From IMG/VR virus record IMGVR_UViG_3300011947_000002, positions 64,001 to 78,349 of that record: a stretch of DNA of 14,349 nucleotides. One strand, 5' to 3'. The stretch comes from a virus. Taxonomy: Duplodnaviria; Heunggongvirae; Uroviricota; Caudoviricetes. The notes beneath the pieces were generated by a model, which saw nothing but the letters and a program-made list of their open reading frames with translations, searched no databases and had not been told where the DNA came from. Below are positions 1 through 13,583 of the stretch, piece by piece. Numbering within the stretch: position 1 is the first letter of the stretch; every line of letters starts with the position of its first letter. The translations under genes and the position numbers were made by a program.

Positions 1-2
1 AC

Positions 3-398
3 GTACCGCGACCTAATGGCGGTCAACCAGATTACGATAATCCATCATACTTATCTGAACACATCATGGGTTCTGTAAATGCTGCTATCTGCCCTACTCA
101 ATTTTATATTGGGGAAGCAGAATTCGACAAAGTAACTACTGGCGAAAACATTTACAAGGTATGGCATGAAGAAGTGTTACAGAAGGCCGAAAAAGGCGAG
201 TTACAGGCCGTTGATGCGAAAGATCGTACTCTGATCCAATTTGATTGGCAAACGTGGCATACGGGCGTTCTAGCGCGTCAAAATGGCTGGCGCTGGTTTG
301 GTCGTCTAAGTCGCAATACAGATCGAACCAAACATATCACAAATGAAATACGTCGTCAGACACAAGTTTATATGGATAATCTAACAGAAGGTTGGTGA
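3..398 (+). CDS. 5'-truncated CDS; hypothetical protein, possibly the C-terminal part of a 2OG-Fe(II) dioxygenase-like fold
   Basis: The frame is open from position 3 (VPRPNGGQPDYDNPSYLSEHI) into the ATG at 66, so the gene starts before the window. C-terminal WHTG...GWRWFGR resembles the distal His plus 2OG-binding Arg strands of double-stranded beta-helix oxygenases; the HxD motif would lie outside the window. The CDS is secure, the product is tentative. Confidence 0.6.
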   Translation, partial: VPRPNGGQPDYDNPSYLSEHIMGSVNAAICPTQFYIGEAEFDKVTTGENIYKVWHEEVLQKAEKGELQAVDAKDRTLIQFDWQTWHTGVLARQNGWRWFGRLSRNTDRTKHITNEIRRQTQVYMDNLTEGW

Positions 399-399
399 T

Positions 400-630
400 A
401 TGAAAGCTCAATTAAGAAGTTCAAATTATGTGATTGCACTCACACCAGAACAATATGATAAATTAGAATCAATGGATTTTATTTATGAAGTTGAACCACG
501 TCTTCATGCGGTTGGTGCTTATCATATTGATTACAGTGGTCATTACGGAAATAACATATTCTTTGAAGCCAAAGCTGACACTGATGTATCATTAATCGAA
601 AACGAACTAAAAAATATGCTGGGGGATTAA
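400..630 (+). CDS. hypothetical protein (76 aa)
   Basis: ORF starts 1 nt after the upstream stop; purine-rich GAAGG/GGTG upstream; tightly packed. Confidence 0.75.
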   Translation: MKAQLRSSNYVIALTPEQYDKLESMDFIYEVEPRLHAVGAYHIDYSGHYGNNIFFEAKADTDVSLIENELKNMLGD

Positions 631-631
631 T

Positions 632-889
632 ATGCTAGTTATTTCATCAAATACAACCGATCGTGCTTCTATTCGTCAAAAATTATTGTGTAATGGTTAT
701 CGAGAACAATTCTTAAATGAAATGAATGCAGGAGAATTCCTATACTTCAACATCAATACCCGCGACAGGTCATTTGTGACAATGAAGCATGATGATTATG
801 AAACACAATATCGATACCAGATTAATCGCGAAGCATTATTCGTGATTTCTTCATCTATATTCCGAGAACGTTTTACATTTTTGATCTAA
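632..889 (+). CDS. hypothetical protein (85 aa)
   Basis: GGGGA Shine-Dalgarno upstream; 1 nt after the previous stop. Confidence 0.75.
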   Translation: MLVISSNTTDRASIRQKLLCNGYREQFLNEMNAGEFLYFNINTRDRSFVTMKHDDYETQYRYQINREALFVISSSIFRERFTFLI

Positions 890-900
890 TATGATATATT
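872..900 (+). promoter_or_regulatory. sigma70-type early promoter with extended -10
   Basis: TTTACA (872-877), 17 nt, TATATT (895-900) preceded by TG at 892-893; upstream of ORF 933. Confidence 0.6.
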
Positions 901-932
901 GTATACACATTATGATTTGTTGAGGGACAAAA

Positions 933-1433
933 ATGATTACATTTAAAATGAAACCATCTTACCATCAAAGTGAAAGTAGCCAAGAATTGCGCGAAAAAGT
1001 TTTCCATATTTACAATAAAAACTCTACCAGCCTTTTCAACAAAAATGAACGTTTCATTTTAACTTGGCTTGATGGATTTGGTTCCAGTGATATTTACTGG
1101 CGTGATAGGGAAAAAATGAATCATGTATATTACAACAGTAGTATGAAATTGGTTCGCTTAATCAATATCAACAACCAGAATGCACGTTATGAAAAAATAT
1201 TGTTTAAATCTGGCGCACGTAAAGGTGAATTGAAAGAATATAAATTGATCCAGAAAAAACAATGGCTTGGTTACACCTATGACATTCCATTGGAATTATT
1301 TAAACATCTTACTCAAAATGGCCGATACCGCATTCGCCAACACAATCATCATTTCACATTTGAAGATGTCAATAATCTTCCTGATAAAGAAAAGCCAAAA
1401 AACAAAGTTAAAACTAAAGGAAAAGCCGCGTAA
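933..1433 (+). CDS. hypothetical basic protein (166 aa)
   Basis: GAGGGA SD, own promoter, terminator at the 3' end; Lys-rich C-terminus. Confidence 0.85.
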   Translation: MITFKMKPSYHQSESSQELREKVFHIYNKNSTSLFNKNERFILTWLDGFGSSDIYWRDREKMNHVYYNSSMKLVRLININNQNARYEKILFKSGARKGELKEYKLIQKKQWLGYTYDIPLELFKHLTQNGRYRIRQHNHHFTFEDVNNLPDKEKPKNKVKTKGKAA

Positions 1434-1447
1434 TGCGGCTTTTTTTA
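1421..1447. terminator. intrinsic terminator between convergent genes, probably bidirectional
   Basis: AAAAGCCGC-GTAAT-GCGGCTTTT stem-loop followed by a T run on + and preceded by an A run; overlaps the stop codons of ORFs 933-1433 (+) and 1445-2059 (-). Confidence 0.85.
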
Positions 1448-2059
1448 TTTTGGATTATATCCCCATTCTGATAATGAGTTTCCGTCAGTATGGACTTCAG
1501 AAGCACTAACGGTTTTGGTTATAATTTTATATTTCCCTTTCAGGTTATCTTTACCATGTTCGTCAGCATAACGCTTAGATAAAGTAACCCAGTCACCAGC
1601 ATTAATTTTAAGCTTTTCGTCATCATTCATATCTTCCAGCTTTTCAGTAAGCTTTTTGATTTCAGCACGAACATGATTTGAGTATTCGCTTTTCGATCCA
1701 GAGAAATATGAAGGAATGGTTCCGCGACGCATATATGCAGCTAATTCTTTTTCATGTTTCGCCAGTTCTTTTTCTACAGCTTTCTTATCACCAAGGGGAA
1801 CAGCACGATAGATTTTAACTGGTTTGTTTTGACGACCCTTATAACGCAATGCAATATTCAAACATTCAACATCAGTTGGCATGTGAGTATATTCATGTGG
1901 TCGCGTATAGATATCATCTGGATATGTTCCATCAAAGGTTAAATCGTACAATGGCGCATCAGCTTTAGTTGGTGCTTCATGATCACCTTTATATTTTTCA
2001 CTGATTACAATTTCACCAGTTAATGCTTTTTCTTCTAATAGGAATTGTTCAAATTTCAT
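1445..2059 (-). CDS. putative ADP-ribosyltransferase-fold protein (R-S-E type), predicted virion-packaged
   Basis: IYRAVP (catalytic Arg strand), INAGDWVTLS (S/T-x-S-like strand), YADEHG, GNSLSEWGY (catalytic Glu); N-terminal MKFEQFLLE resembles the T4 capsid-targeting sequence. Confidence 0.6.
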   Translation of the reverse strand: MKFEQFLLEEKALTGEIVISEKYKGDHEAPTKADAPLYDLTFDGTYPDDIYTRPHEYTHMPTDVECLNIALRYKGRQNKPVKIYRAVPLGDKKAVEKELAKHEKELAAYMRRGTIPSYFSGSKSEYSNHVRAEIKKLTEKLEDMNDDEKLKINAGDWVTLSKRYADEHGKDNLKGKYKIITKTVSASEVHTDGNSLSEWGYNPK

Positions 2060-2060
2060 T

Positions 2061-2567
2061 TTAAATTTTCTTCATTTTTTGTATTGTTGTATCGCTTAAT
2101 ATCTGGCCCTTACCACGTGCTGTATCTATGATTAGGCGATCCAGAGTATTTATATTATTTAAATCGTTGTGTTCAGATAAGGTATAATAATTTTTCAGTT
2201 CTGATTTGAATAAAGAAACAATCATTAAGATATATGCTTTATCTACCATCGGACTGAATTTATAAACGATGTGATCAACACTAATTCCATCCAAATGAAC
2301 TTCAGTGAAGATATCAATGATTGTAGAAATCACCATATCAACATCATAAAAATCACTCATGATTGGTTGAATTTTATTATCACCCTTCTGGTATCCTAAT
2401 TCCACCACATAAAAATCTTCTTTTTTGGTGAAAATCATTCTATATTTTTTATCTTCATCCGTTTCAATATCGAATTGAATAGCAGTATCACTACTATTCT
2501 TATCGTAGTTATAGCTTCCTTTAGATGCCGATTCTGCTATAAGTCGGCTATAATCTTTATATTTCAT
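2061..2567 (-). CDS. hypothetical protein (168 aa), candidate internal head protein
   Basis: ATGA overlap with the upstream gene; N-terminus MKYKDYSRLIAE ends in an I-x-E site like T4 MKTYQEFIAE. Confidence 0.8.
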   Translation of the reverse strand: MKYKDYSRLIAESASKGSYNYDKNSSDTAIQFDIETDEDKKYRMIFTKKEDFYVVELGYQKGDNKIQPIMSDFYDVDMVISTIIDIFTEVHLDGISVDHIVYKFSPMVDKAYILMIVSLFKSELKNYYTLSEHNDLNNINTLDRLIIDTARGKGQILSDTTIQKMKKI

Positions 2568-2965
2568 ACGTGATTGATAAACCGTTTTAAAAATTGAAAT
2601 GCACGTTGTGATATGACAGAATCGCGTTTAATAAATCGCTTTTTACTGATACTGGTAAACACCAACTCATCACCAACTTTAGTTAAGTATGCAAGTTCTT
2701 CTAGATCATTCTTAACAATTAAAGATAAGTTAGATACATCTGACTTACTCACATCTTTAATATTATTAGTATTAGTAAAATCAACAGATTTACCTACAGG
2801 TACACAACGAAGAATTCTAATAATATCACGCGCATTGGCGGTATCATCTGCTGTTGGTGTTTTATTTAAATTCTTATTAATTTCTTCTGTGTCAATACTT
2901 TGTTCTTGTTGATTCTGATTCAAAATAAATTCAGATAGATATTCTTTAATATTTTTTTCACTCAT
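2564..2965 (-). CDS. hypothetical protein (133 aa), candidate internal head protein
   Basis: Start moved from 2974 to the ATG at 2965, which has a GAAGGTG SD; N-terminus MSEKNIKEYLSE. Confidence 0.8.
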   Translation of the reverse strand: MSEKNIKEYLSEFILNQNQQEQSIDTEEINKNLNKTPTADDTANARDIIRILRCVPVGKSVDFTNTNNIKDVSKSDVSNLSLIVKNDLEELAYLTKVGDELVFTSISKKRFIKRDSVISQRAFQFLKRFINHV

Positions 2966-3242
2966 GGGATTCACCTTCTTTTTGTTTTAAAATTTCTCTT
3001 GATATATCAACTTCATGCTTGATGTGAATAATACCATGTGTGTATAAAGAAGCCTGAACCCATGTAATCCATGCAGAACTTGTTGTTTTAGGGTTGTAAT
3101 CCGGTGAAGACATTTTTTCCAACATCCAAAGGGCATGGGAAAGTCCCAGACTACCATCCTTATCTTTCACAGGTTTAATATCAGGTCGAATTTCATTAAT
3201 AAACATTTTGTATCGGTTAACTAACACATTTATATTTTTCAT
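2958..3242 (-). CDS. conserved-type phage hypothetical protein (94 aa)
   Basis: AAGGA SD and late promoter upstream; HALWMLEKM...WITWVQASL...G resembles, from recall, a widespread HxxWM...WxGxxQG phage family of unknown function. Confidence 0.8.
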   Translation of the reverse strand: MKNINVLVNRYKMFINEIRPDIKPVKDKDGSLGLSHALWMLEKMSSPDYNPKTTSSAWITWVQASLYTHGIIHIKHEVDISREILKQKEGESHE

Positions 3243-3264
3243 ACGTTACACATCCTTTTAATAG

Positions 3265-3272
3265 TATTTATA
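3265..3272 (-). promoter_or_regulatory. T4-type late promoter TATAAATA
   Basis: Exact TATAAATA on the minus strand, 22 nt upstream of the ATG of the minus-strand operon and upstream of its SD. Confidence 0.65.
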
Positions 3273-3284
3273 TGAGTTTATCAC

Positions 3285-3313
3285 TTTACAAATATGATTT
3301 AAACATTTATTAT
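3285..3313 (+). promoter_or_regulatory. sigma70-type promoter
   Basis: TTTACA (3285-3290), 17 nt, TATTAT (3308-3313); upstream of ORF 3346 and divergent from the late promoter. Confidence 0.55.
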
Positions 3314-3345
3314 GTGTATACAAAATTCAATTAGAGAATTCATAT

Positions 3346-4275
3346 ATGTTAATTACTCCAAAAATACGTTTGTATTCAGAATTTTACATCGCAAAATTTA
3401 CTGATCCTGATATTGAAAAATATGGTCTAACACGTAGCTACTATGAACGTCACAATGCATTAGGTGAACAACCATTATATGACGGCATCATTGGTTTATA
3501 TGGGGAAGTTAATGAATTCGACTTACATCCAATGTATTATGAAACAAAGCAGCAATTTCAAGATATTCACGTATCAAATATTAAATCATATTTGAATCGA
3601 AATCGTTATCTTGCATATAAGATTAAAAAGTTTCGCTGGAATGAAAATTATCGTGCATTGTTTCATCCACGTTTTATCTTCAGAGGTGAATATCCAGACG
3701 AACAAAGTTATATAAAAGCTTACAAAGCAAATAAAGATGTAAGTATTACACCTTATGGTGCTGGTGATGATCCTTTACAAATTTATAATCGCCTTAACTT
3801 CTTAAAGAAAATCAAAAATCGTGATTTTATTATTTCTTTAACATTCACCCGAAAGGAAATTCTTGAAGATGGAGAAACATCATATGGTGGCTATCGTCAA
3901 CATAAAAATGGCGGATACTTCGGAACCAAGTTTCTAGAACATGAATATCTAGCTGATGAAGATGCTATCAAGGATGGTATTTATCAATTCCATATCTTGG
4001 AATTAGTGAAACCAGATGATATTGATATAATCAGAACAGAGAATTTCATTTATGTTCGAGGTCGTCGTAATCGGGAAAATTATGAAGTGTATGATATTAA
4101 GGATGATCGCTACTTAATCACTCATATCCAAAAGAACAAAGAAGGACAATTTTACATTGGTGATGCTATTCATCAAATTAAATTTTATGATGAAGGTGAA
4201 TTCAGCATTGAACAAGTTGATGCCGACCTAAAAGCAATGGTTGATGAATTCAAGTCAAAACGCAACGCTACATAA
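3346..4275 (+). CDS. hypothetical protein (309 aa)
   Basis: Long ORF with AGAG SD; the segment YGAGDDPLQ...GGYRQHKNGGYFG...EYLADE resembles, from recall, the GGWRWHKWG-Y-G family of large-phage hypotheticals. Confidence 0.85.
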   Translation: MLITPKIRLYSEFYIAKFTDPDIEKYGLTRSYYERHNALGEQPLYDGIIGLYGEVNEFDLHPMYYETKQQFQDIHVSNIKSYLNRNRYLAYKIKKFRWNENYRALFHPRFIFRGEYPDEQSYIKAYKANKDVSITPYGAGDDPLQIYNRLNFLKKIKNRDFIISLTFTRKEILEDGETSYGGYRQHKNGGYFGTKFLEHEYLADEDAIKDGIYQFHILELVKPDDIDIIRTENFIYVRGRRNRENYEVYDIKDDRYLITHIQKNKEGQFYIGDAIHQIKFYDEGEFSIEQVDADLKAMVDEFKSKRNAT

Positions 4276-4297
4276 GCTAATTTAACGCTATTTGAGA

Positions 4298-4342
4298 ATT
4301 TAAGCCGCTGGATGGTATATCACTACTGTCGTCGGCTTAAAT
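4298..4342. repeat. 10-bp inverted repeat with 25-nt spacer
   Basis: ATTTAAGCCG (4298-4307) and CGGCTTAAAT (4333-4342), just downstream of ORF 3346-4275. Confidence 0.7.
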
Positions 4343-4423
4343 GCCTTATACGGGCTTACAATGCAAATTAAAAACATATTGTTTGTAAATACACGATAGT
4401 TTGTTGTATACACACGATTCTTC

Positions 4424-4452
4424 TTGACACAATTCGATGTAATATTAATAAT
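4424..4452 (+). promoter_or_regulatory. possible sigma70 promoter firing into the AT-rich tract
   Basis: TTGACA (4424-4429), 17 nt, AATAAT (4447-4452; 5/6 match lacking the first T). Confidence 0.35.
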
Positions 4453-4555
4453 ATCTATTATAATATATAATAATTACTTATATATTTATTAACTAATAAT
4501 TAATTATATTTATATGTCGCGAAGCGACATATTGATGCGAAGCATCAAATTTGAT
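4440..4555. other. AT-rich unwinding tract plus tandem GCGAAGC mini-hairpins and a palindrome; candidate replication origin
   Basis: 4440-4515 has 3 C and no G in 76 nt; ATATGTCGC-GAA-GCGACATAT (4512-4532); TTGATGC-GAA-GCATCAA (4532-4548); perfect palindrome ATCAAATTTGAT (4544-4555). Confidence 0.5.
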
Positions 4556-4579
4556 TTTATTATTTTTATATGATATATT
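4551..4579 (+). promoter_or_regulatory. sigma70-type promoter with extended -10
   Basis: TTGATT (4551-4556), 17 nt, TG-A-TATATT (4571-4579). Confidence 0.5.
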
Positions 4580-4613
4580 TCTTACATCAAATATGTATAG
4601 AGATATTTTTAAA

Positions 4614-5504
4614 ATGTTAATTACTAAGAAAAATAGAATTGAAACTAATATTACAAGATTACATCAGTTCTTTGAATTCATTAGTCCAACCATTAGTTTC
4701 TTACAATCGGATATCTTGTTCCATTTAAGAAGTCAGTTAAAAAATTCATTGACTGGATTGATTTACAATGAATCATTTGAAGTGTTATGTGATTATAACA
4801 CACGTTCAATCAATCGTTATTTCAAAGACTGGGAAAACGACGAAGATTGTACAATTTCAGTGCTGGATTGGATTCAACCAAATATTCCATTATTAATTGT
4901 TCCAGCGGAATATCAGGATAAAATTCCATCTGTTTTATTATCTGAAAAAGTAGCAAATCTTGAAGATGATCTATTCGCTCCATCAGGTGAAGATAACTAT
5001 ATCGATTTTTCTTACAAGAATGCTGAATATCATTATGCACATTATACCCTATTAAATTATGTGTTTAATAAGTTTATGAATGATATTCTTTCGTCAAAAT
5101 ATAATACGAATAAAGGTGCTATTTTCGGTGATATTTATAACAATTATTTCCGTAAACAGGTTTCTTTTTACAAAGAAAGAATGATGAAACTGGCTTTACT
5201 TTCATCTAATCCTGATATTCAGGAACGTGCGAAGATGATTCTAACAACTTCAGATTTCATTTATTGTGAAGATTCATACACTGAAACACATCATTGTCGA
5301 GTTTTGTTTACATCTGAATACTTTGTTCAAGGTGGTGATCAATTAGATCGTAGTGCACATATGTTTAAATCATCTCATAGAGATAATATGTTGAATGAAA
5401 TGCGAGATATCCATAATCCATTATTTAACAAATATATTGATATTATGAAGGCGAGAATAGCCAATTCAAATGTTGATACAAATATCCATGATGAAAATTC
5501 ATAA
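4614..5504 (+). CDS. hypothetical protein (~296 aa)
   Basis: Long ORF; the TTG start at 4551 coincides with a promoter -35, so the ATG at 4614 (AGAG upstream) or at 4593 is more plausible. Confidence 0.8.
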   Translation: MLITKKNRIETNITRLHQFFEFISPTISFLQSDILFHLRSQLKNSLTGLIYNESFEVLCDYNTRSINRYFKDWENDEDCTISVLDWIQPNIPLLIVPAEYQDKIPSVLLSEKVANLEDDLFAPSGEDNYIDFSYKNAEYHYAHYTLLNYVFNKFMNDILSSKYNTNKGAIFGDIYNNYFRKQVSFYKERMMKLALLSSNPDIQERAKMILTTSDFIYCEDSYTETHHCRVLFTSEYFVQGGDQLDRSAHMFKSSHRDNMLNEMRDIHNPLFNKYIDIMKARIANSNVDTNIHDENS

Positions 5505-5519
5505 TTTATAGGATAACTA

Positions 5520-5990
5520 ATGAAAGAATTTACAATTGCTAATATGACCAGTATCGAAATGTTGGTTGATTTAATTGATGAAACCAGTGAATGTGTAGGT
5601 GATAATTATAACATCAGCCAAAAATGTGATGATATAATTGAAGAAATGATTCAATCCATTAATGATTTAAACAACCCTACTTTAAAGGGGAAATATTTCT
5701 TCACTGAATCAAATCTTCAATATTGTGCCAATGAAGCTATAACCAATGATGTTGATCAGCTTGGTGTGCACATTGATCATGATGGGGTTTGGGAATTTAA
5801 CGGTCGAATTCACGATGATGTATATTCTTGGGTAGAAAATATTATGGTGTTTTTCTATCATGCCGATGGAAGTGGTTTTGATTACATTATTGGTCATCAT
5901 AAACACGGTCTAATATTTTCTAATGAAACAGTATTCGGCCGATTCATTAAACGCTTTCCAACAAATGTATGGGATTATAGGGATATCTAA
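5520..5990 (+). CDS. hypothetical acidic protein (156 aa)
   Basis: AGGA SD; TAATG coupling to the next gene. Confidence 0.85.
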   Translation: MKEFTIANMTSIEMLVDLIDETSECVGDNYNISQKCDDIIEEMIQSINDLNNPTLKGKYFFTESNLQYCANEAITNDVDQLGVHIDHDGVWEFNGRIHDDVYSWVENIMVFFYHADGSGFDYIIGHHKHGLIFSNETVFGRFIKRFPTNVWDYRDI

Positions 5991-6697
5991 TGACTAATTT
6001 AATCACGTGCATTGCAGTTGAACCTACGAACTTTTTTCTTATCTACAACAGACTATATTCATTAAAAGCATCTGATGTAAATGGATTATTTGATGTATTG
6101 GTAAAACAATCACAATTAATCTTTGATGAGAAAGGGAAAGTGATTGTTGGGCATAATCAACATAACCTGATTAAATTCGTTCAAGAACGATATATTAAAG
6201 ATATTCGTGACTTTCAAAATAATGTCACAGCGTTAGACGATATGGTTGTGTACGATGTACAAGCATTGATCAATACTATATGTGATGATATTCTTAATTA
6301 TAAGAATCGAGAAGTTTTAATTGATGAAGACTTAATGTTATGTGAAATAACAAATAAGCCAAATAATAATTGTGCATATTTGATGTTTTATGGTAAAATT
6401 TTCAAAATTAAACTTAATCCGATTAATGGGATTTTTAATAAAGCATATCATCCGATGCGAAATACTGATGTCTTAAAAACATCAGGATTCATAATTGATG
6501 ACGGTGTTAAAATTAAATTAAGGAATAATCAAGGATCAAAAGATTTAATTGACTTTATCAACAATAATACGGTTGATGATGTTGCTGTAGATTTAACACA
6601 TCTTATTAGTCGAGATGAAATTTACAACGAAATGACAAAATCCACTAATGCTGTGATTCAGTTCAAAATTTCCCAAAAAATTTTAGAAGGGATGTGA
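5990..6697 (+). CDS. hypothetical protein (235 aa)
   Basis: TAATG overlap with the upstream gene; long ORF. Confidence 0.85.
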   Translation: MTNLITCIAVEPTNFFLIYNRLYSLKASDVNGLFDVLVKQSQLIFDEKGKVIVGHNQHNLIKFVQERYIKDIRDFQNNVTALDDMVVYDVQALINTICDDILNYKNREVLIDEDLMLCEITNKPNNNCAYLMFYGKIFKIKLNPINGIFNKAYHPMRNTDVLKTSGFIIDDGVKIKLRNNQGSKDLIDFINNNTVDDVAVDLTHLISRDEIYNEMTKSTNAVIQFKISQKILEGM

Positions 6698-6736
6698 TAT
6701 TTATCACCCATTTCTTGGAATAAAGAGAGTTTTAAA

Positions 6737-6955
6737 ATGGAAGATTTACAATCGAAATATGAAAAACTGAAAGAAGACGATCATATCTTCTTAACACATG
6801 ATAATATTGAATGTGTAGTAGTTTCACAACATGTAGGTGATTCTGTATTCCTTCAACGCACAGACGACCATTCAAAATACTTCCATATTTTCTATGATGA
6901 ACTATGTGAAAAAGATCAATTTAAAATAATAGGATTGCAAAAAGGTGAACGATAG
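6737..6955 (+). CDS. hypothetical protein (72 aa)
   Basis: AGAGAG upstream; directly abuts the next gene. Confidence 0.7.
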   Translation: MEDLQSKYEKLKEDDHIFLTHDNIECVVVSQHVGDSVFLQRTDDHSKYFHIFYDELCEKDQFKIIGLQKGER

Positions 6956-7501
6956 ATGAGAATCCAGAAAGGTAAGGTTCGTTTCTCTAAACGAGAATTA
7001 TGGAACCTAGATGAAACATTAAAACCTATCCTACGCACAGCCCTAACACAGTTTCGTGATGCTAAAAAGATGGGTGTATCTACACTTGTCTATGAAGACT
7101 ATATCGCGGATGAACGCGGTATTACTGTTGATGAAGCTGCTAAATGGATCAAGGAACATCGCGATATTTATGGTAATATCGAAGGTTTCAAAGGCCGACT
7201 AGAAGAAATGGTTGAATATTTCCATAAAGTTATTCTGGAAGATATGATATTTGCATTTAGCGATCATCTAGATTATATGGATATTGAAAATCAGCCGTAT
7301 AATATCCATTTCAATCGTGTGGGTACAACCAGTGAAGGCAATGTTCGCTCTGTGTTGCATAGAGAAATGAAAGATGGCTTCACAGAAGAAGATTATGATT
7401 CTTATCGCGAACGTGAACGCGAATATGATAAGAAAGTGCATGATCGATGTGAACGTGGGCGATTCTTATTTGCAAGATATTTTCATGCACTTTGGGATTA
7501 A
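6956..7501 (+). CDS. conserved-type phage hypothetical protein (181 aa)
   Basis: AAAGGTG SD; WNLDETL...DMIFAF...GRFLFARYFHALWD resembles, from recall, a common phage family ending LFxKYyxxLWD. Confidence 0.85.
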   Translation: MRIQKGKVRFSKRELWNLDETLKPILRTALTQFRDAKKMGVSTLVYEDYIADERGITVDEAAKWIKEHRDIYGNIEGFKGRLEEMVEYFHKVILEDMIFAFSDHLDYMDIENQPYNIHFNRVGTTSEGNVRSVLHREMKDGFTEEDYDSYREREREYDKKVHDRCERGRFLFARYFHALWD

Positions 7502-7514
7502 TCCCAAATTTGTA

Positions 7515-7543
7515 TTTACAAACTATCCATCATTTGATACACT
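7515..7543 (+). promoter_or_regulatory. sigma70-type early promoter with extended -10
   Basis: TTTACA (7515-7520), 17 nt, TG-A-TACACT (7535-7543); heads the gene run 7571-11720. Confidence 0.7.
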
Positions 7544-7570
7544 CTATACATCAAATGATGGATTTTTACT

Positions 7571-7918
7571 ATGCTGAACAACAACTTAAAGAAATCTAAG
7601 GAATTGATTTATAATCTCGGTTATAAAGATGATTTATACAAGGTGAATTTAATTTGTCAGGATGGACAATTTCGTGTTGATTATGAACCGTGTAACTTTT
7701 TACGTAAAGTTATTGAAACAGGGCGAACAAAAGATATTGTTGATATAGCTGGGGCATTTAACACATTTTGTATGGGGGATATTCATCCATTCACTAAATT
7801 TATTGAGTCTACACACTTATATGGCGATAAACTATTAAACCTGAACGTTAACCAAATACTTAATAGTTATGAAAATTGGTTTGAGTTAAACAAAAACAAT
7901 TTCAGTGAGTGGTGTTAA
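7571..7918 (+). CDS. hypothetical protein (115 aa)
   Basis: GATGGA upstream; follows a promoter. Confidence 0.8.
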   Translation: MLNNNLKKSKELIYNLGYKDDLYKVNLICQDGQFRVDYEPCNFLRKVIETGRTKDIVDIAGAFNTFCMGDIHPFTKFIESTHLYGDKLLNLNVNQILNSYENWFELNKNNFSEWC

Positions 7919-7919
7919 T

Positions 7920-8246
7920 ATGGCCTTGCGTGTTACGAATAAAGATAATCGAGTGATTATTCAAAACGAAATTGGTATGAATCCCAATGGTTTTGAATTT
8001 GATAATGGTTTAAACACTGTAATGGTTTTATGTGATCGTTTATATGTGTATAAAACAAACAACCCTGAATCCATTTATGAAAGAAATTTAAATGAAAAGT
8101 TCTCAATTGTGGTTCGGGGAAAGATGGTTTTTGATAATCAAGAAGAATATGATAAGTGTATAAGAAATCAACTCTTTGTAATACTTAGTGTATTTGGTGC
8201 TTTTTTCTTAATATTTATTATATTTGCTTATTTTACAGGGATATAA
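7920..8246 (+). CDS. hypothetical membrane-anchored protein (108 aa)
   Basis: ATG at 7920, 1 nt after the previous stop, GTGGTG upstream; C-terminal hydrophobic helix LFVILSVFGAFFLIFIIFAYF. Confidence 0.8.
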   Translation: MALRVTNKDNRVIIQNEIGMNPNGFEFDNGLNTVMVLCDRLYVYKTNNPESIYERNLNEKFSIVVRGKMVFDNQEEYDKCIRNQLFVILSVFGAFFLIFIIFAYFTGI

Positions 8247-8251
8247 TTATT

Positions 8252-8896
8252 ATGCGATATTTAATGTTTAAACTGGATATGCCAAATGTTGGTTCATGGA
8301 ATAATAAATGGTCACATAAAGATCGATTATTCGCTTCTATAATTCGATTACCTGATCGTTCTAAGCAATCTAAAATTGAATCTGAAGAAAAGATTAAGCT
8401 GTGGAGTGGATCACACTATTACGATTTTGAAGATGGTTGGGGTGCTTCTGTAACTGTTAAAGAAGTTGATGAAAAAGAAGCTAAGCTAATTAATAAAAAC
8501 AGTGATGGGTTTTCTGGTTATGATTGGATGATTACCATGATCATGAATCATGGCCGCATTTTAACTCGTTCCGAAAGAGGTCAATTTGAAGCCACTGCTA
8601 TTATTGGTAGTGTTATCAAGACCGATGTTGATAAAAAGTATAGTGGTTTAGACGCTTTTATTCAGGCCAAATATGAATATTTGAATTCAATCAAATATGA
8701 TCAATTTGCAACTGTATATACAAATATGATATCATCTCTATTATCAGATAAAGATCAAACTCTGGTGGATAGTAAGGGTTTAGAAAACGAAGTATCATTA
8801 TCAGTAGTTAACCAATTACCTAAGAATTCTGACTACATCGTTAAAAAAATTCTTTCACTCACTTATGATCAATTTAATACGTGGAGTGTGCCATGA
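8252..8896 (+). CDS. conserved-type hypothetical protein (214 aa)
   Basis: The N-terminal ~105 aa carry MPNVGSWNNKWS...DGWGASV...SDGFSGYDWM, which I recall as a conserved phage/bacterial family of unknown function; followed by a ~110-aa extension. Confidence 0.85.
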   Translation: MRYLMFKLDMPNVGSWNNKWSHKDRLFASIIRLPDRSKQSKIESEEKIKLWSGSHYYDFEDGWGASVTVKEVDEKEAKLINKNSDGFSGYDWMITMIMNHGRILTRSERGQFEATAIIGSVIKTDVDKKYSGLDAFIQAKYEYLNSIKYDQFATVYTNMISSLLSDKDQTLVDSKGLENEVSLSVVNQLPKNSDYIVKKILSLTYDQFNTWSVP

Positions 8897-9780
8897 ATAA
8901 CGTTGAACATAAATTAGGCCAGTTGGATTATGGGAATCGTGCCGCTATCACTGATTTAGTGGATAAAATGCTTCTTCTACAAGGGAAGGCTGATTCAAAC
9001 TTCCAAAAGGCCAAAATTGTAAATCAATTGCGTATTCCAAGCAATTGTATCGCGCCATATGTGATCATAAATGACCTTAAAAAGATCAATGATTTACAAC
9101 GTTTGGAGGATTATAAAAATAGTCAAATCTCAAAATACAATGAGATGATTGCTGATCTAACCAAACAACATAATGAAAATTTGGATGCAATCAATTCAAA
9201 CCGCGCATTGAAAGCAAAAATCATTGAATTGTTCACTTACATCGGTATACACCAAGAATATTCAGAGTTAAAAACTTCTGGTGCACGATTTAAAACTATC
9301 AAGCACAAAGCTGGTTACTTGAGTGATCTTGATCGTGTATGTGTAACCAATGACTATTATGATAATTGTATTTCTACCATTCAATCACACATTACCCAAG
9401 TTGAACGCGAATTCAACCAACTGTACGGCCAATTACAGCATAAAGCAGCATTAGAACGCAATAAGTCATTATTCTACAAATTCAACCATCATGCAGTTGA
9501 ATTCAATGTGGATGTAAAAGATGTGTTTGATTTTATCAAAGTCAAACGTGGCATGTTGACTAAGATCGATAATGCATTGGGTAATCTATACAACGAAAAG
9601 GTTTCAGAATTCTTATCGGATGGATATGATGAAGTTCAAGACGTTGTAGATGCTGAAATCGATGTGGTTAATAACATCGTCTTTAACAATAACTTGTTGA
9701 TTGATGATGCTGATATTTCACTGTTGAAGTTGAAATATTACACTTATAACCACACCAAAAATCAAATCTTAGGTGCTTAA
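8893..9780 (+). CDS. hypothetical helical/coiled-coil protein (~295 aa)
   Basis: ATG at 8893 with GGAG SD (8883-8886) and ATGA overlap, preferred over the GTG at 8881; heptad-like Q/N/K/E-rich stretches. Confidence 0.85.
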   Translation: MNNVEHKLGQLDYGNRAAITDLVDKMLLLQGKADSNFQKAKIVNQLRIPSNCIAPYVIINDLKKINDLQRLEDYKNSQISKYNEMIADLTKQHNENLDAINSNRALKAKIIELFTYIGIHQEYSELKTSGARFKTIKHKAGYLSDLDRVCVTNDYYDNCISTIQSHITQVEREFNQLYGQLQHKAALERNKSLFYKFNHHAVEFNVDVKDVFDFIKVKRGMLTKIDNALGNLYNEKVSEFLSDGYDEVQDVVDAEIDVVNNIVFNNNLLIDDADISLLKLKYYTYNHTKNQILGA

Positions 9781-9782
9781 TA

Positions 9783-10412
9783 ATGGCTGGATATCACCAA
9801 AATTTCATTATGAAATTCCCACATGGAAATGTACATAAATTAAAAGAAGAAGTTGATGAATTCCTTGATGCCTATGCGTCAGGGAACCCAATCATGGCTA
9901 TGCAAGAACTATCAGATATCTATTTGATCTTACGCACCATCGCACGTGATTATGGGATTGATGTAAGTGATTTAGCTAAAATGGCTGACACAACTGAAAG
10001 CGTTTTCTTGTCTGGTGATCGTACATCATGCAACTTATTTGAAATGATTCGTTCAAATACAAAGTATATAAGTTTATCTGTACCAGCCCCAAAATATTAT
10101 TTTATTTGTGAAGATGTTAATTATGAATATATATTGGTTGATTCAGAAACGGAAACTATAATTCTACCTGCTGGGACAGAATATTTTGAAGTATTGGCTG
10201 GGGAAGTTTATGTTGAAGATCAGCGCATCATTGAACAATACCAATGTAGTAAAACTTCAATTACATTTTTAGAGTTCAAATCCAAAGGTTTGATTATGAC
10301 TAAATCAAATGGATTAAAAGATAATTTAAATTCGATTAATCATGTTTCTTATAATAAATCGGATAAAATATTTGATGTTTTAAAAGCATCATTGGAAGAA
10401 TTTGATGTTTGA
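9783..10412 (+). CDS. MazG-like (all-alpha NTP pyrophosphatase) domain protein with a C-terminal extension
   Basis: KLKEEVDEFLDA (EExxE) and MQELSDIY (ExxD) metal-binding helices in the first ~80 aa; then a ~125-aa beta-rich C-terminal region. Confidence 0.65.
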   Translation: MAGYHQNFIMKFPHGNVHKLKEEVDEFLDAYASGNPIMAMQELSDIYLILRTIARDYGIDVSDLAKMADTTESVFLSGDRTSCNLFEMIRSNTKYISLSVPAPKYYFICEDVNYEYILVDSETETIILPAGTEYFEVLAGEVYVEDQRIIEQYQCSKTSITFLEFKSKGLIMTKSNGLKDNLNSINHVSYNKSDKIFDVLKASLEEFDV

Positions 10413-10959
10413 TATTGATGCTAATTTGCTTTATCAGGCTATGATGTTCTTCAATAATTGCGGTTATGAGTTTATAACCGCGCCTTACGTCGTAGATAAG
10501 AAGGCGGTAGAACATACCCTACCTGAAGGTCGTGAAGCTTACCCACACGCAAATTATGGATTCTACGTGGGATCAGCAGAACAATCTATCTATCATATGC
10601 TTGATAAATGCGGCCGTAAAAATTTACCAAAGCGTTGTCTGGCAATTACACCATGTCAAAGAAATGAAGAAGTTCTGGATGAATCACATCTTGAAATCTT
10701 TCTGAAGATCGAATTGATCAGTTTTGATTTGGGATACAGTCATAAAAATATTATGGAAGATGTTCTAGATTTCCTAAAATCAATTGGAACGGAAAATGTA
10801 ATATATGTGATGCAAGATGATAATGTATCATATGACATTAACGTGAATAATATCGAAGTTGGTTCATATGGCTATCGCTGGTTCAGAGATGTTCTGGTAT
10901 CCTATGGAACAGGTCTTGCATTACCACGTTATTCATATGCTGTTAGTAAAGGAAAGTAA
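10405..10959 (+). CDS. stand-alone class II aminoacyl-tRNA synthetase-like catalytic core (SerRS-like, 184 aa)
   Basis: Motif 1 GYEFITAPYVV; GSAEQS (SerRS PTAE/TxE loop); motif 2 TPCQRNE...HLEIFLKIEL (SerRS CFRxE...HQFxKVE); EVGSY (SerRS EISS); motif 3 GTGLALPR (SerRS GSGLAxxR). ATG 10405 with GGAAG SD; 8-nt overlap with the MazG-like gene; no tRNA-binding domain. Confidence 0.75.
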   Translation: MFDIDANLLYQAMMFFNNCGYEFITAPYVVDKKAVEHTLPEGREAYPHANYGFYVGSAEQSIYHMLDKCGRKNLPKRCLAITPCQRNEEVLDESHLEIFLKIELISFDLGYSHKNIMEDVLDFLKSIGTENVIYVMQDDNVSYDINVNNIEVGSYGYRWFRDVLVSYGTGLALPRYSYAVSKGK

Positions 10960-10960
10960 T

Positions 10961-11269
10961 ATGAAATACTGTGAAAAAAGAATTTACGTCGCTGAAGATG
11001 GTCGCCAATTCGAATTTGAATCTGATGCACAAGAATATTGCAACGAATATATTTTGCATCAGAACATGGCGATCCGAAAATCAGATATTAAGGATTATGA
11101 AAAGAAACTTGAACGAATTGGTGTCGTAGCATTCCTTGATGAATTCTATGATTTGGCGCAATCAAACAGCATGGGTGCAATGCATCCAATGGATGTAATG
11201 AAATACATCATCGACATGAAGAATTTAGATTATCCAGACGGGATATATAATGAAGCTGAAGAATATTGA
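10961..11269 (+). CDS. hypothetical protein (102 aa)
   Basis: ATG at 10961 with AAGGAAAG SD, preferred over 10859; N-terminal YVAEDGRQF motif typical of small phage proteins. Confidence 0.8.
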   Translation: MKYCEKRIYVAEDGRQFEFESDAQEYCNEYILHQNMAIRKSDIKDYEKKLERIGVVAFLDEFYDLAQSNSMGAMHPMDVMKYIIDMKNLDYPDGIYNEAEEY

Positions 11270-11720
11270 ATTAGTTTTTGAAAATTGCGAAACCATGTTT
11301 ATCAATTATCCAGATGTTGTTTATCTGGATGTTGAAAAGCCATACATCAGCTTTGCCAGCTACATGAATGCAATTTGCAAAAATCAATGTATTGAAGGAT
11401 TCTCTATTGGAATTGCAAAAGGTGCTGATTTTCCTGATTCAACATCATTCAGTGGGGATATGACGATTGATCGTCTAAAGCTACAGGATGTCACTCAATT
11501 ACACATCACATATGATGATGAATCAACTGATTCATTTTATGTCAATTGGGATGTTGATCATGAAACCAGAAATGAAAAGCAAAACTTATTGGAAACAAAT
11601 GAAGGTAACTTCGTTTATTATTCATATAGTGGCGATAAAGAACCAGATAATTTAATGGAATTAAAATGTTCTGTGGATTTTCTTGTTAGCATGAATAAAG
11701 TGATGGAAGAAAGGGATTAA
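11250..11720 (+). CDS. hypothetical acidic protein (156 aa)
   Basis: 20-nt overlap with the upstream gene; GGGA upstream; ends in a terminator. Confidence 0.8.
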   Translation: MKLKNIELVFENCETMFINYPDVVYLDVEKPYISFASYMNAICKNQCIEGFSIGIAKGADFPDSTSFSGDMTIDRLKLQDVTQLHITYDDESTDSFYVNWDVDHETRNEKQNLLETNEGNFVYYSYSGDKEPDNLMELKCSVDFLVSMNKVMEERD

Positions 11721-11731
11721 TCCCTTTTTTT
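11710..11731 (+). terminator. intrinsic terminator
   Basis: Perfect palindrome AAAGGGATTAATCCCTTT (11710-11727) running into a T tract to 11731; contains the stop codon of ORF 11250. Confidence 0.75.
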
Positions 11732-11781
11732 CATCTTTGTAATTAAATAGAAATATATCTAAAAATGTAATTACAAAGATG
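11732..11781 (+). promoter_or_regulatory. 14-bp inverted repeat covering the start codon of ORF 11779
   Basis: CATCTTTGTAATTA (11732-11745) and TAATTACAAAGATG (11768-11781); TAAATA at 11744-11749. Confidence 0.6.
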
Positions 11782-12015
11782 TTAAAGAAATTATTTTGCT
11801 TCCATGACTATCAAATAATATTAGATCAGAACTCTATGCATGTGTGGTCTTATGAGGACTTCCAAACAAATAAAGTTTATCGATATGAATATTCATACTG
11901 TGCTGTGATTTGTTCAAAATGTGGTAAATATCGTGATAATTATAAAATAGAAGATAAAAATCACCCTGATCGACATAGTGATAGAACAGTTTATATTGAT
12001 ATTAAAAATACTTAA
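11779..12015 (+). CDS. small putative Zn-binding protein (78 aa)
   Basis: LFCFHDY...CSKCGK (CxH...CxxC) pattern common in small phage proteins. Confidence 0.75.
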   Translation: MLKKLFCFHDYQIILDQNSMHVWSYEDFQTNKVYRYEYSYCAVICSKCGKYRDNYKIEDKNHPDRHSDRTVYIDIKNT

Positions 12016-12031
12016 ACTTATATCTTCAAAT

Positions 12032-12060
12032 TTGACATATTTGCTTCCAAGTGGTACTAT
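12032..12060 (+). promoter_or_regulatory. strong sigma70-type promoter with extended -10
   Basis: TTGACA (12032-12037), 17 nt, TG-G-TACTAT (12052-12060). Confidence 0.8.
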
Positions 12061-12096
12061 TCTTATATCGGATAAATACTTGTTGGAGTATAAAAC

Positions 12097-12378
12097 ATGG
12101 CAACTTTTCAAGAAAGTTTTGATTCAATCGTTAAACTAACTAAAAAAGAAATCAAGAAAGGTGAAGCTACCGCTGAAATTAACCTTGAAATCAATGTTAG
12201 TTCAATGGGTGGGGATTTTGCGAGAGATTTGTGGTACGGACTACGCACTTATAAGTTTAAAGGTTATAAAGTTCGTACTTGCCGAATCCGCGAAACAGAA
12301 GAATATCTTTTTGTAGATTACGATTATCAAGAGAAAGATATCTTAATTCAGTTGAATCTTGTGTTGGAAAAAATATAA
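12097..12378 (+). CDS. hypothetical protein (93 aa)
   Basis: GGAG SD at 12085-12088; own promoter. Confidence 0.85.
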   Translation: MATFQESFDSIVKLTKKEIKKGEATAEINLEINVSSMGGDFARDLWYGLRTYKFKGYKVRTCRIRETEEYLFVDYDYQEKDILIQLNLVLEKI

Positions 12379-12450
12379 AGTAATCGCCATGTGTTTATTC
12401 TTCCACAATTATGTTCAAGATACCCAAGATGAAGATCAAATGATCCACTA

Positions 12451-12621
12451 ATGCCTTTATCTAACAAAAACTTTTTTAAGGATGTACAAGTGATTACACT
12501 AATAATAATTTCAGTTTTATGGTTCACATTTTATAAAACACATCATCATATGCCACCACGTTTTTTAAAAGCTTATAAATGGACAGCATTTGTATTAGTG
12601 GCGTTGTCAATCATCTTGTAA
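12451..12621 (+). CDS. small membrane protein with two hydrophobic segments (56 aa; alternative GTG start 12490), absent from the ORF track
   Basis: MPLSNKNFFKDVQVITLIIISVLWFTFYKTHHHMPPRFLKAYKWTAFVLVALSIIL; fills an otherwise empty gap; AAGGA SD before the in-frame GTG at 12490. Confidence 0.55.
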   Translation: MPLSNKNFFKDVQVITLIIISVLWFTFYKTHHHMPPRFLKAYKWTAFVLVALSIIL

Positions 12622-12634
12622 GGGTTGCTGATAT

Positions 12635-12895
12635 ATGAAAAAATTTGATGGAATACATCCATGCGCATATGAAACTATCTTTGGAATCATCAACATTGAT
12701 CCTGATGAAGAAAAAGGTTGGTTTGTCGTGAAAAAGATTACTGAGTCACCTGTTATGTATCCAGTAGTCGTAGATTATGATCGAATTGTTGGTTTACGTC
12801 GTTTCAAAAATCGAACTAAGTGTTACCAGTTTATTCGAGGGATGGAATTACGTGTAGCCGATAATGTTAAAAAGTTGTTGTCGGAAATAGTATGA
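12635..12895 (+). CDS. hypothetical protein (86 aa)
   Basis: AAGGG upstream; in line with neighbours. Confidence 0.8.
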   Translation: MKKFDGIHPCAYETIFGIINIDPDEEKGWFVVKKITESPVMYPVVVDYDRIVGLRRFKNRTKCYQFIRGMELRVADNVKKLLSEIV

Positions 12896-12960
12896 TTTTT
12901 ATTGCTTGTATCTTCATCTCAATTATTGCTTTATTTGTTGTTTCTTTTTTGAGAAGATAA
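12892..12960 (+). CDS. putative single-TM micropeptide (22 aa), absent from the ORF track
   Basis: MIFIACIFISIIALFVVSFLRR; ATGA overlap with the stop of ORF 12635; GGAA upstream. Confidence 0.4.
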   Translation: MIFIACIFISIIALFVVSFLRR

Positions 12961-13040
12961 AAATAAGCATAATCCAAAGGTGTGTTGTATGAACAATACA
13001 TCTTTTACCTATATGTCTAATTATGAAAGGATAAGAATAC

Positions 13041-13583
13041 ATGACATTTAAATTAATCGTGGATTTCGAAGCCACATGTTCAAAAGACCAGAAAGAGTTT
13101 CCGCGTGAAGATATGGAAATCATTGAAATTGGGGCGATTTTATATGATGAGAATTGGGAAGAACGAGGTAAATTTCAGTGTTTCATTAAACCAGTTAAAC
13201 ATCCAAAGTTAACCGACTTTTGCATGGAGTTGACTACTATCAAACAACAAGATGTTGATGCGGGTGACTCATTTATAGATTCTATAATTGCATTTCAAAA
13301 ATGGGTTGACGAAATATGTGGGAAAAATGATTATATATTTTGTTCATGGGGCGACTTTGATAAAAACATTTTGAAACGCCAATGTAAAGAAGAAAATCTT
13401 CGGCACGTGAAGATGATTGAAAATCATATTAATATAAAAAGGGAATTCGCTGAATACCACAACATCAAGCCAATGGGGGTTGGGGCTGCACTAAAATATA
13501 TGCGAATGAAATTTGAAGGTACTCAACACCGTGCCTTGGATGATGCTATTAATATCGCTGAATTGATCAAGACGATGGGGTGA
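13041..13583 (+). CDS. DEDDh 3'-5' exonuclease, ERI-1/KapD-like family
   Basis: ExoI LIVDFEATC plus EIIEIGA, ExoII WGDFDKNIL, ExoIII HRALDDA; FIKP and LTDFCMELTTI are typical of ERI-1-like nucleases. Confidence 0.9.
   Translation: MTFKLIVDFEATCSKDQKEFPREDMEIIEIGAILYDENWEERGKFQCFIKPVKHPKLTDFCMELTTIKQQDVDAGDSFIDSIIAFQKWVDEICGKNDYIFCSWGDFDKNILKRQCKEENLRHVKMIENHINIKREFAEYHNIKPMGVGAALKYMRMKFEGTQHRALDDAINIAELIKTMG

Follow-up and report, generated by a model that had tools for sequence, protein, structure and literature searches.

A minimal SerRS-type class II core paired with a MazG/HisE-like domain in large phages, CPR bacteria and DPANN archaea: a candidate two-part enzyme

The window analysed here is a stretch of 14,349 nucleotides (14.3 kb) forming the terminal part of a 78,349-bp virus record. 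It is AT-rich (GC content 32%), and the whole 78-kb phage contig is devoid of tRNA genes. A Megablast search of phage records with this region returned no near relative; the nearest protein match is to Acinetobacter phage Phab24, at 47.8% identity. Two overlapping genes on the plus strand, P0001 and P0002, are the subject of this description. The features of the locus are as follows.

7491-7543, plus strand: upstream boundary of the eight-gene run, with a terminator-like hairpin at 7491-7508 and then a promoter-like site at 7515-7543, by consensus scan, pattern match only
9783-10412, plus strand: P0001, gene for a 209-aa two-domain protein (MazG/HisE-like and cupin-like), by ORF, translation, phrog_6408 and AF2
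9783-10025, plus strand: MazG/HisE-type all-alpha NTP-pyrophosphatase-like domain of P0001, residues 1-81, with the metal motif E22 E23 E26 / E42 D45
10035-10409, plus strand: additional C-terminal beta-rich domain of P0001, residues 85-209, weakly cupin-like
10405-10412, plus strand: 8-nt gene overlap, ATGTTTGA, where the core gene begins before the MazG-like gene has ended, from the sequence
10405-10959, plus strand: P0002, gene for a 184-aa minimal SerRS-type class II catalytic core
11702-11735, plus strand: terminator-like hairpin that contains GGGATTAATCCC as its core and marks the downstream boundary of the run, pattern match only
13041-13583, plus strand: 180-aa RNase T/DEDD-type 3'-5' exonuclease
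14209-14349, plus strand: 5' part of a gene of the Sir2 family (sirtuin-like, NAD-dependent), truncated by the end of the contig

The pair occupies positions 5 and 6 in an eight-gene run (7571-11720) that is densely packed with ORFs. The ATG of the core gene lies at 10405 and the TGA of the MazG-like gene at 10410-10412. The resulting overlap implies translational coupling, and overlaps of -3 to -13 nt between the two genes are frequent at other loci too. A preliminary description of this DNA had noted two genes with an 8-nt overlap, one MazG-type and one encoding a small SerRS-like class II core, and that observation is confirmed. The GGGATTAATCCC core is common to the hairpins at either end of the run, which may be copies of a repeated phage terminator or regulatory hairpin. 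Almost all other ORFs at 1-9780 and 10961-13000 lack a Pfam match, and the few that match PHROGs fall in families of the function-unknown type; these parts of the window appear as a run of small, early-gene-like orphan ORFs. The exonuclease at 13041-13583 matches Pfam RNase_T (3.4e-24) and an Rv2179c-like model (3.2e-7), and an Rv2179c-like exoribonuclease also adjoins the pair at a viral locus unrelated to this one. The sirtuin-like gene lies a few kb from the pair; it begins with MKNVVFLTGAGLSKESGIDTFRD, has 47 residues present, and its Pfam SIR2 match (E 1.7e-5) is barely above the cut-off.

P0002 is, by sequence and structure prediction, a class II core of the SerRS type with a complete active site. 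It matches PHROG 4806 with E 1.3e-45, a family labelled 'histidyl tRNA synthetase'. With Pfam, a sub-threshold match to a PheRS-type class II core was the sole result, and PF00587, the Pfam SerRS-class model, gave no match. A 59-sequence profile of P0002 searched against the PDB matched PylRS (1.5e-6), SerRS (1e-4) and also PheRS; the slight lead of PylRS over SerRS in this ranking, like the missing PF00587 match, counts against the SerRS-type reading. The AlphaFold2 model, built from a 59-sequence alignment, has a pLDDT of 96.4 and a pTM of 0.91, and shows the antiparallel beta-sheet class II fold with motifs 1, 2 and 3 present. Foldseek comparison of the model with PylRS gave a TMq of ~0.74, and the structural matches also include HisZ and HisRS. 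The class II fold of the model agrees with the one proposed for the product of 10405-10959 in the preliminary description.

The hhalign alignment of P0002 with E. coli SerS covers SerS residues 186-406. It places S57/E59 on T237/E239, R86 on R268, F99-K101-E103 on F287-K289-E291, D144 on D342, E151/S154 on E355/S358, T169 on S391 and R175 on R397. The aligned segments (P0002/SerS) are VGSAEQS/IPTAEVP, TPCQRNE/TPCFRSE, FLKIE/FDKVE, YDINV/YDLEV, IEVGS/REISS and GTGLALPR/GSGLAVGR. Among 251 members of the family, S57, E59, Q60, P83, C84, R86, F99, K101, E103, D144, E151, S154, T169, A172, P174 and R175 are 99-100% invariant, with R86, R175, E151 and S154 conserved in every member. We take this set to include the arginines of motifs 2 and 3, the Phe that stacks on adenine, and the Glu and Ser that bind Mg. 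The serine-pocket positions E59, E103 and T169, aligned with SerS E239, E291 and S391, are likewise invariant, and presumably correspond to the three serine contacts of SerRS: the Glu of the TAE loop, the Glu of F-x-K-x-E and the Thr/Ser ahead of motif 3. A strand with F-x-K-x-E and a motif 3 of the form G-(T/S)-G-L-A are SerRS signatures. Since the ATP, Mg and serine positions are invariant, P0002 looks like a complete, active serine-adenylating site, its activity being predicted from these residues. ATP is almost certainly bound, as a prediction, and serine, judged by motif identity alone, is most likely the amino acid. At about 180 aa, this family ranks among the smallest known class II proteins whose active site appears complete.

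A non-catalytic role for the core is very improbable. P0002 would then be a HisZ-like ligand-binding subunit or a decaying aaRS fragment, and its pairing with P0001 purely structural; the PHROGs label, the HisZ and HisRS structural matches and HisE as the best Pfam match of the partner all lean that way. Unlike in HisZ, however, the catalytic Arg, Glu and Ser are 99-100% invariant in a family of more than 1000 divergent lineages, the core is predicted to be well folded, and linkage to HisG was not found in the neighbourhoods.

The bacterial-type class IIa SerRS references used for comparison are E. coli SerS, the T. thermophilus structures 1SER and 1SRY and human mt-SerRS (7U2A). The core matches bacterial-type SerS in its serine-pocket residues and motifs, but is ~240 residues shorter. 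It begins at the equivalent of SerS residue ~186, so that the N-terminal antiparallel coiled coil, the arm by which SerRS contacts the long variable arm of tRNA-Ser, is absent from the model; an anticodon domain is absent from P0002 as well. The motif 2 loop has 6 residues, against 14 in E. coli SerS (hhalign). The core further differs from SerRS in being linked to a MazG-like protein and, in cellular carriers, in having a canonical SerRS beside it. PylRS (PylSc, class IIc) is its best PDB profile match, and the two have a similarly short motif 2 loop and an HLE-x-F strand in common. In contrast, the core has E103 where PylRS has a key Asn, its motif 3 is SerRS-like, and the tRNA-binding helices and tail of PylRS are absent. 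Class II cores that lack tRNA-binding domains and perform non-translational chemistry, or regulate it, are also found in the amino acid:carrier-protein ligases, EpmA/PoxA, AsnA and HisZ, and the core family most plausibly belongs with these tRNA-independent synthetase paralogues. The latter are ~300 aa or longer, however, and derive from methanogen-type SerRS, LysRS, AspRS or HisRS. They have a known partner or target each (carrier protein, EF-P, HisG), and pairing or fusion with a MazG/HisE-type domain is not known for any of them. Linkage of the core to genes for a carrier protein, EF-P or HisG was not found, and the 84 viral loci surveyed have no conserved third neighbour. HisZ differs from the core in two respects, since the catalytic residues of the core are invariant and HisG is not linked to it.

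The partner, P0001, carries its conserved domain at the N-terminus. Residues 1-80 match phrog_6408 (E 4.8e-15); the Pfam matches are PRA-PH/HisE (best), MazG-like and MazG, all weak and below the cut-off. The AF2 model of P0001 has a pLDDT of 85. Residues Y4, H5, I9, K19, E22, E23, E26, E42, D45, T71, F75 and R80 are invariant in forty homologues, and the EExxE/ExxD residues (E22 E23 E26 / E42 D45) align with EEVGE and EELAD of the Sulfolobus MazG 1vmg. The metal-binding carboxylates of the MazG/HisE type are kept in this protein. It shares the EExxE...ExxD arrangement on consecutive helices of a small helical domain with MazG, HisE (PRA-PH), MazZ and the T4 gp56 dCTPase. It differs from all of them in its ~82-aa, three-helix size, its scores below every Pfam cut-off, the invariant motifs G-Y-H (N-terminal) and T-x3-F-x2-G-x-R (C-terminal) that are peculiar to it, and its coupling to a SerRS-type core. 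Phage NTP pyrophosphohydrolases of this kind pass the NMP to the next enzyme, as MazZ does to PurZ and gp56 to gp42. The partners at most other loci consist of the ~82-aa domain and have no extra domain. The extension in P0001 (residues 85-209) is beta-rich, poorly conserved and weakly cupin-like, and is restricted to the closest relatives, namely Phab24-like and T4-like Acinetobacter phages. Foldseek of the two-domain model against the PDB gave no match at E ≤ 0.001, and an Atlas search with the C-terminal domain returned nothing useful.

The linkage of the two genes was surveyed in 80 IMG/VR loci and three phage records, representing 65 lineages at <70% identity. All ORFs of the viral loci were scanned with HMMs for both domains, the MazG HMM being built from domain envelopes only. 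A MazG-like domain lies within ~0.5 kb of the core in 80 of the 84 viral loci; the HMM scan itself gave 79, and the seeming exception L019 has a MazG-like domain directly upstream as well. In most cases the MazG-like gene immediately precedes the core gene, the two overlapping slightly; at some loci it follows immediately instead. The remaining exceptions are Acj61, one half-complete contig and one contig edge. Acj61 is a complete genome with the core present and the partner absent, which counts against obligatory pairing. Both domains are fused in a single ORF at two viral loci (L043, at 1001-1789, and L078), and further fusions were found among library representatives in both domain orders (five core-MazG, two MazG-core). 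Clustering at 50% identity divides the core family into 1,628 groups, and E is ≤ 1e-30 for 1,106 of those. Complex prediction for the core with the MazG-like domain gave a score of 0.02 and a mark of 0.32, and weighs neither way. The association with a MazG-like gene that the preliminary description mentioned for other phages holds across the viral loci, and extends to 20 of 22 cellular loci (see below) and to natural fusions.

A triphosphate-binding partner beside the core at nearly all of these viral and cellular loci would also suit a pair that handles signal nucleotides. Attack of NTPs on an enzyme-bound aminoacyl-adenylate is an established side reaction of aaRSs, and the core, which has no domain for a macromolecular acceptor, would on this account use seryl-AMP to build Ap4A, Ap3A, Ap4N or alarmones of a related kind, a chemistry shown by LysU among other aaRSs. 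The partner would cleave or trim the dinucleoside polyphosphates or supply the second nucleotide. We regard this as unlikely. The strict serine-side-chain contacts E103 and T169 would be superfluous in a pure Ap4A synthase, a synthase fused to a hydrolase in minimal symbionts and phages is hard to explain, and linkage to ApaH or Nudix genes was not found in phages.

The surroundings of the pair vary among phages. In Phapecoctavirus, a UvrD helicase gene is upstream and class III RNR genes are downstream, and in T4-like Acinetobacter phages the pair lies within the nrdC region. Citromicrobium phage RXM has the pair beside dNMP kinase, ThyX and MazG genes (PMC8953757). Other phage loci contain a mixture of nucleotide, sugar-nucleotide and translation genes. 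The translation genes near the pair are those for MetRS and PTH2 at some loci and YqeY in phi92, and this heterogeneity counts against a nucleotide-related reading. All-against-all clustering of the flanks and Pfam searches with 60 flanking proteins revealed no third conserved neighbour in phages, the flanks being lineage-specific. The YqeY/GatB-domain protein (phi92 gp195) was considered as a third partner and rejected, being adjacent to the pair only in phi92 among the 84 loci. Literature searches found no experimental study of the pair, in agreement with the preliminary description; mentions are limited to genome annotation (PMC8953757), and a survey of jumbo phages (PMC7824862) does not discuss it.

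A scan of a genome collection revealed 22 cellular loci, including ones in CPR bacteria and DPANN archaea. The MazG-like domain is present at 20 of them and fused to the core at seven. Saccharibacteria are among the carriers and have the core and MazG-like genes adjacent to each other, while one Woesebacterium and six DPANN archaeal MAGs have fusions in the order core then MazG. In five of five CPR/DPANN genomes checked, the MazG subfamily is single-copy and located beside or fused to the core, and all five also encode a full-length canonical SerRS scoring above the NCBI curated cut-off. Because canonical serS coexists with the mini core in each of these genomes, the latter is neither the housekeeping SerRS nor its replacement. 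The same observation argues against the alternative, raised in the preliminary description, that the protein simply charges tRNA-Ser.

Two gene families adjoin the fusions. The first encodes a small, unclassified radical SAM protein (221-256 aa) and directly adjoins the fusion at four DPANN loci and in the Woesebacterium:

L094, L098, L100 and L107, about 4790-5520, plus strand: radical SAM gene
L095, 3234-4004, plus strand: radical SAM gene

Its best similarities, which are weak, are with MoaA, viperin and NrdG, all of which act on NTPs, and with enzymes of the QueE type; the likeness to KamA/EpmB is generic (E ~1e-4), far below the cut-off. In cellular carriers, this family may supply a third component. 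The Atlas clusters nearest to it are largely viral. The second is a ~280-aa family with a winged-helix-like N-terminus, which adjoins the fusion at six DPANN loci, is mostly divergently transcribed and has no Pfam or NCBIfam match:

L094, 3011-3865, minus strand: wHTH-like gene
L098, 3045-3884, minus strand: wHTH-like gene
L100, 2577-3416, minus strand: wHTH-like gene
L103, 3084-3956, minus strand: wHTH-like gene
L107, 2026-2862, minus strand: wHTH-like gene
L099, 699-1517 and 3521-4378, minus strand: wHTH-like gene, present twice

Both families are absent from the phage genome described here, and the radical SAM gene is absent at all 84 phage loci. The genes flanking the pair in Saccharibacteria encode a P-loop kinase of the AAA_28 (NadR-RNK-like) type and a wHTH-NUDIX protein:

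L109, 3043-3699, plus strand: kinase or wHTH-NUDIX flank gene
L106, 2417-3601, minus strand: kinase or wHTH-NUDIX flank gene
L096, 2929-3597, minus strand: kinase or wHTH-NUDIX flank gene
L109, 2268-2936, minus strand: kinase or wHTH-NUDIX flank gene

These flank genes are reminiscent of NAD and nucleoside-salvage regulators.

The radical SAM gene that abuts the fusion at five DPANN/CPR loci recalls EpmA/EpmB, in which a class II paralogue is partnered with a radical SAM enzyme. By this precedent, the core could attach serine, or in DPANN a derivative made by the radical SAM enzyme, to a protein side chain in the manner of EpmA/PoxA, with the MazG-like protein as adaptor or regulator. Such protein aminoacylation is quite improbable. 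The radical SAM gene is missing from the 84 phage loci and from this genome, and its likeness to KamA/EpmB is no closer than generic; there is no conserved gene for a target protein, and the conserved metal site of the MazG-like domain would be left without a role.

Enzymatic action on RNA ends is rather unlikely, though several observations are in its favour. The active site of the core is that of a tRNA-charging enzyme; the motif 2 loop of PylRS, which charges tRNA, is equally short in the alignment; many of the carriers are large phages; and MetRS, PTH2 or, in phi92, the YqeY/GatB-type tRNA-binding-domain protein adjoins the pair at some loci. The core would aminoacylate the 3' end of a tRNA (tRNA-Ser or another) or of a tRNA-like RNA, with the RNA contacts provided in trans. 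The partner would process a (pyro)phosphorylated RNA end or clear a competing nucleotide, for example in tRNA repair or protection during infection. Against this stand the missing tRNA-binding arm and anticodon domain of the core, the occurrence of the YqeY neighbour in phi92 only among the 84 loci, and the lack of a conserved RNA-binding partner. Moreover, the phage contig has no tRNA genes, the CPR/DPANN genomes retain a normal SerRS, and the cellular neighbours of the pair are nucleotide enzymes rather than RNA enzymes.

The reading we favour, with a probability of about one half, is that the pair is one two-part enzyme which combines serine activation with NTP-type hydrolysis in a nucleotide-centred pathway, and does not serve ordinary tRNA-Ser charging. 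That the two proteins act together is shown by their adjacency and translational coupling, by the fusions in either order and by their one-to-one relation in minimal genomes; they probably form one complex. The wide spread of the pair, its single-copy retention in reduced CPR/DPANN genomes and the combination of adjacency with fusions further imply that the two activities belong to one shared reaction or pathway. Ordinary charging of tRNA-Ser by the core is unlikely, because the tRNA-binding parts are missing and a real SerRS coexists with it. A nucleotide pathway is favoured because of the metal site of the partner, the kinase, Nudix and radical SAM neighbours in cellular carriers, and several of the phage neighbourhoods. 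The mechanisms put forward in the preliminary description, namely attachment of an amino acid to a nucleotide, base or host protein, dinucleoside-polyphosphate or (p)ppGpp-like signalling, and a ligase/eraser pair, are candidates between which these findings do not discriminate. A purely anti-defence role is, however, made less likely by the finding that CPR bacteria and DPANN archaea carry the pair on their chromosomes in single copy.

In the two-part enzyme proposed here, the core would bind ATP together with L-serine, or with a compound closely resembling it, and form seryl-AMP. The seryl group would then go not to the tRNA-Ser of translation but to a different acceptor, for which a small molecule of the nucleotide type is the likeliest candidate. 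The partner would split a molecule of the nucleoside-triphosphate type between its alpha and beta phosphates, leaving a monophosphate and PPi, a step that would either supply the acceptor of the core or process its product. The models for this role, by analogy, are MazZ with PurZ, T4 gp56 with gp42, and HisE acting on PR-ATP. A more specific version, which we offer tentatively and consider unlikely as it stands, is an aminoacyl-nucleotide synthase in which the MazG/HisE-like half converts a possibly modified NTP to the monophosphate and the mini-SerRS half esterifies or amidates it with serine. To our knowledge, no truncated aaRS paralogue among those studied loads a free nucleotide. If this version is true, large phages, CPR bacteria and DPANN archaea would contain a seryl-nucleotide metabolite, for example a cofactor or its precursor, a modified nucleotide or a mimic of a tRNA end.

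The core and MazG pair is common to large phages and to the genome-reduced symbiotic CPR and DPANN microbes, in over a thousand lineages, with its genes adjacent or fused. The database names 'seryl-' and 'histidyl-tRNA synthetase' given to the core family are misleading, and the identity of the product would correct thousands of such phage annotations. The tRNA-independent relatives of aaRSs have repeatedly yielded unexpected chemistry, including EF-P lysylation, carrier-protein loading and asparagine synthesis, and knowledge of the product would add a new enzyme to nucleotide and amino-acid metabolism.
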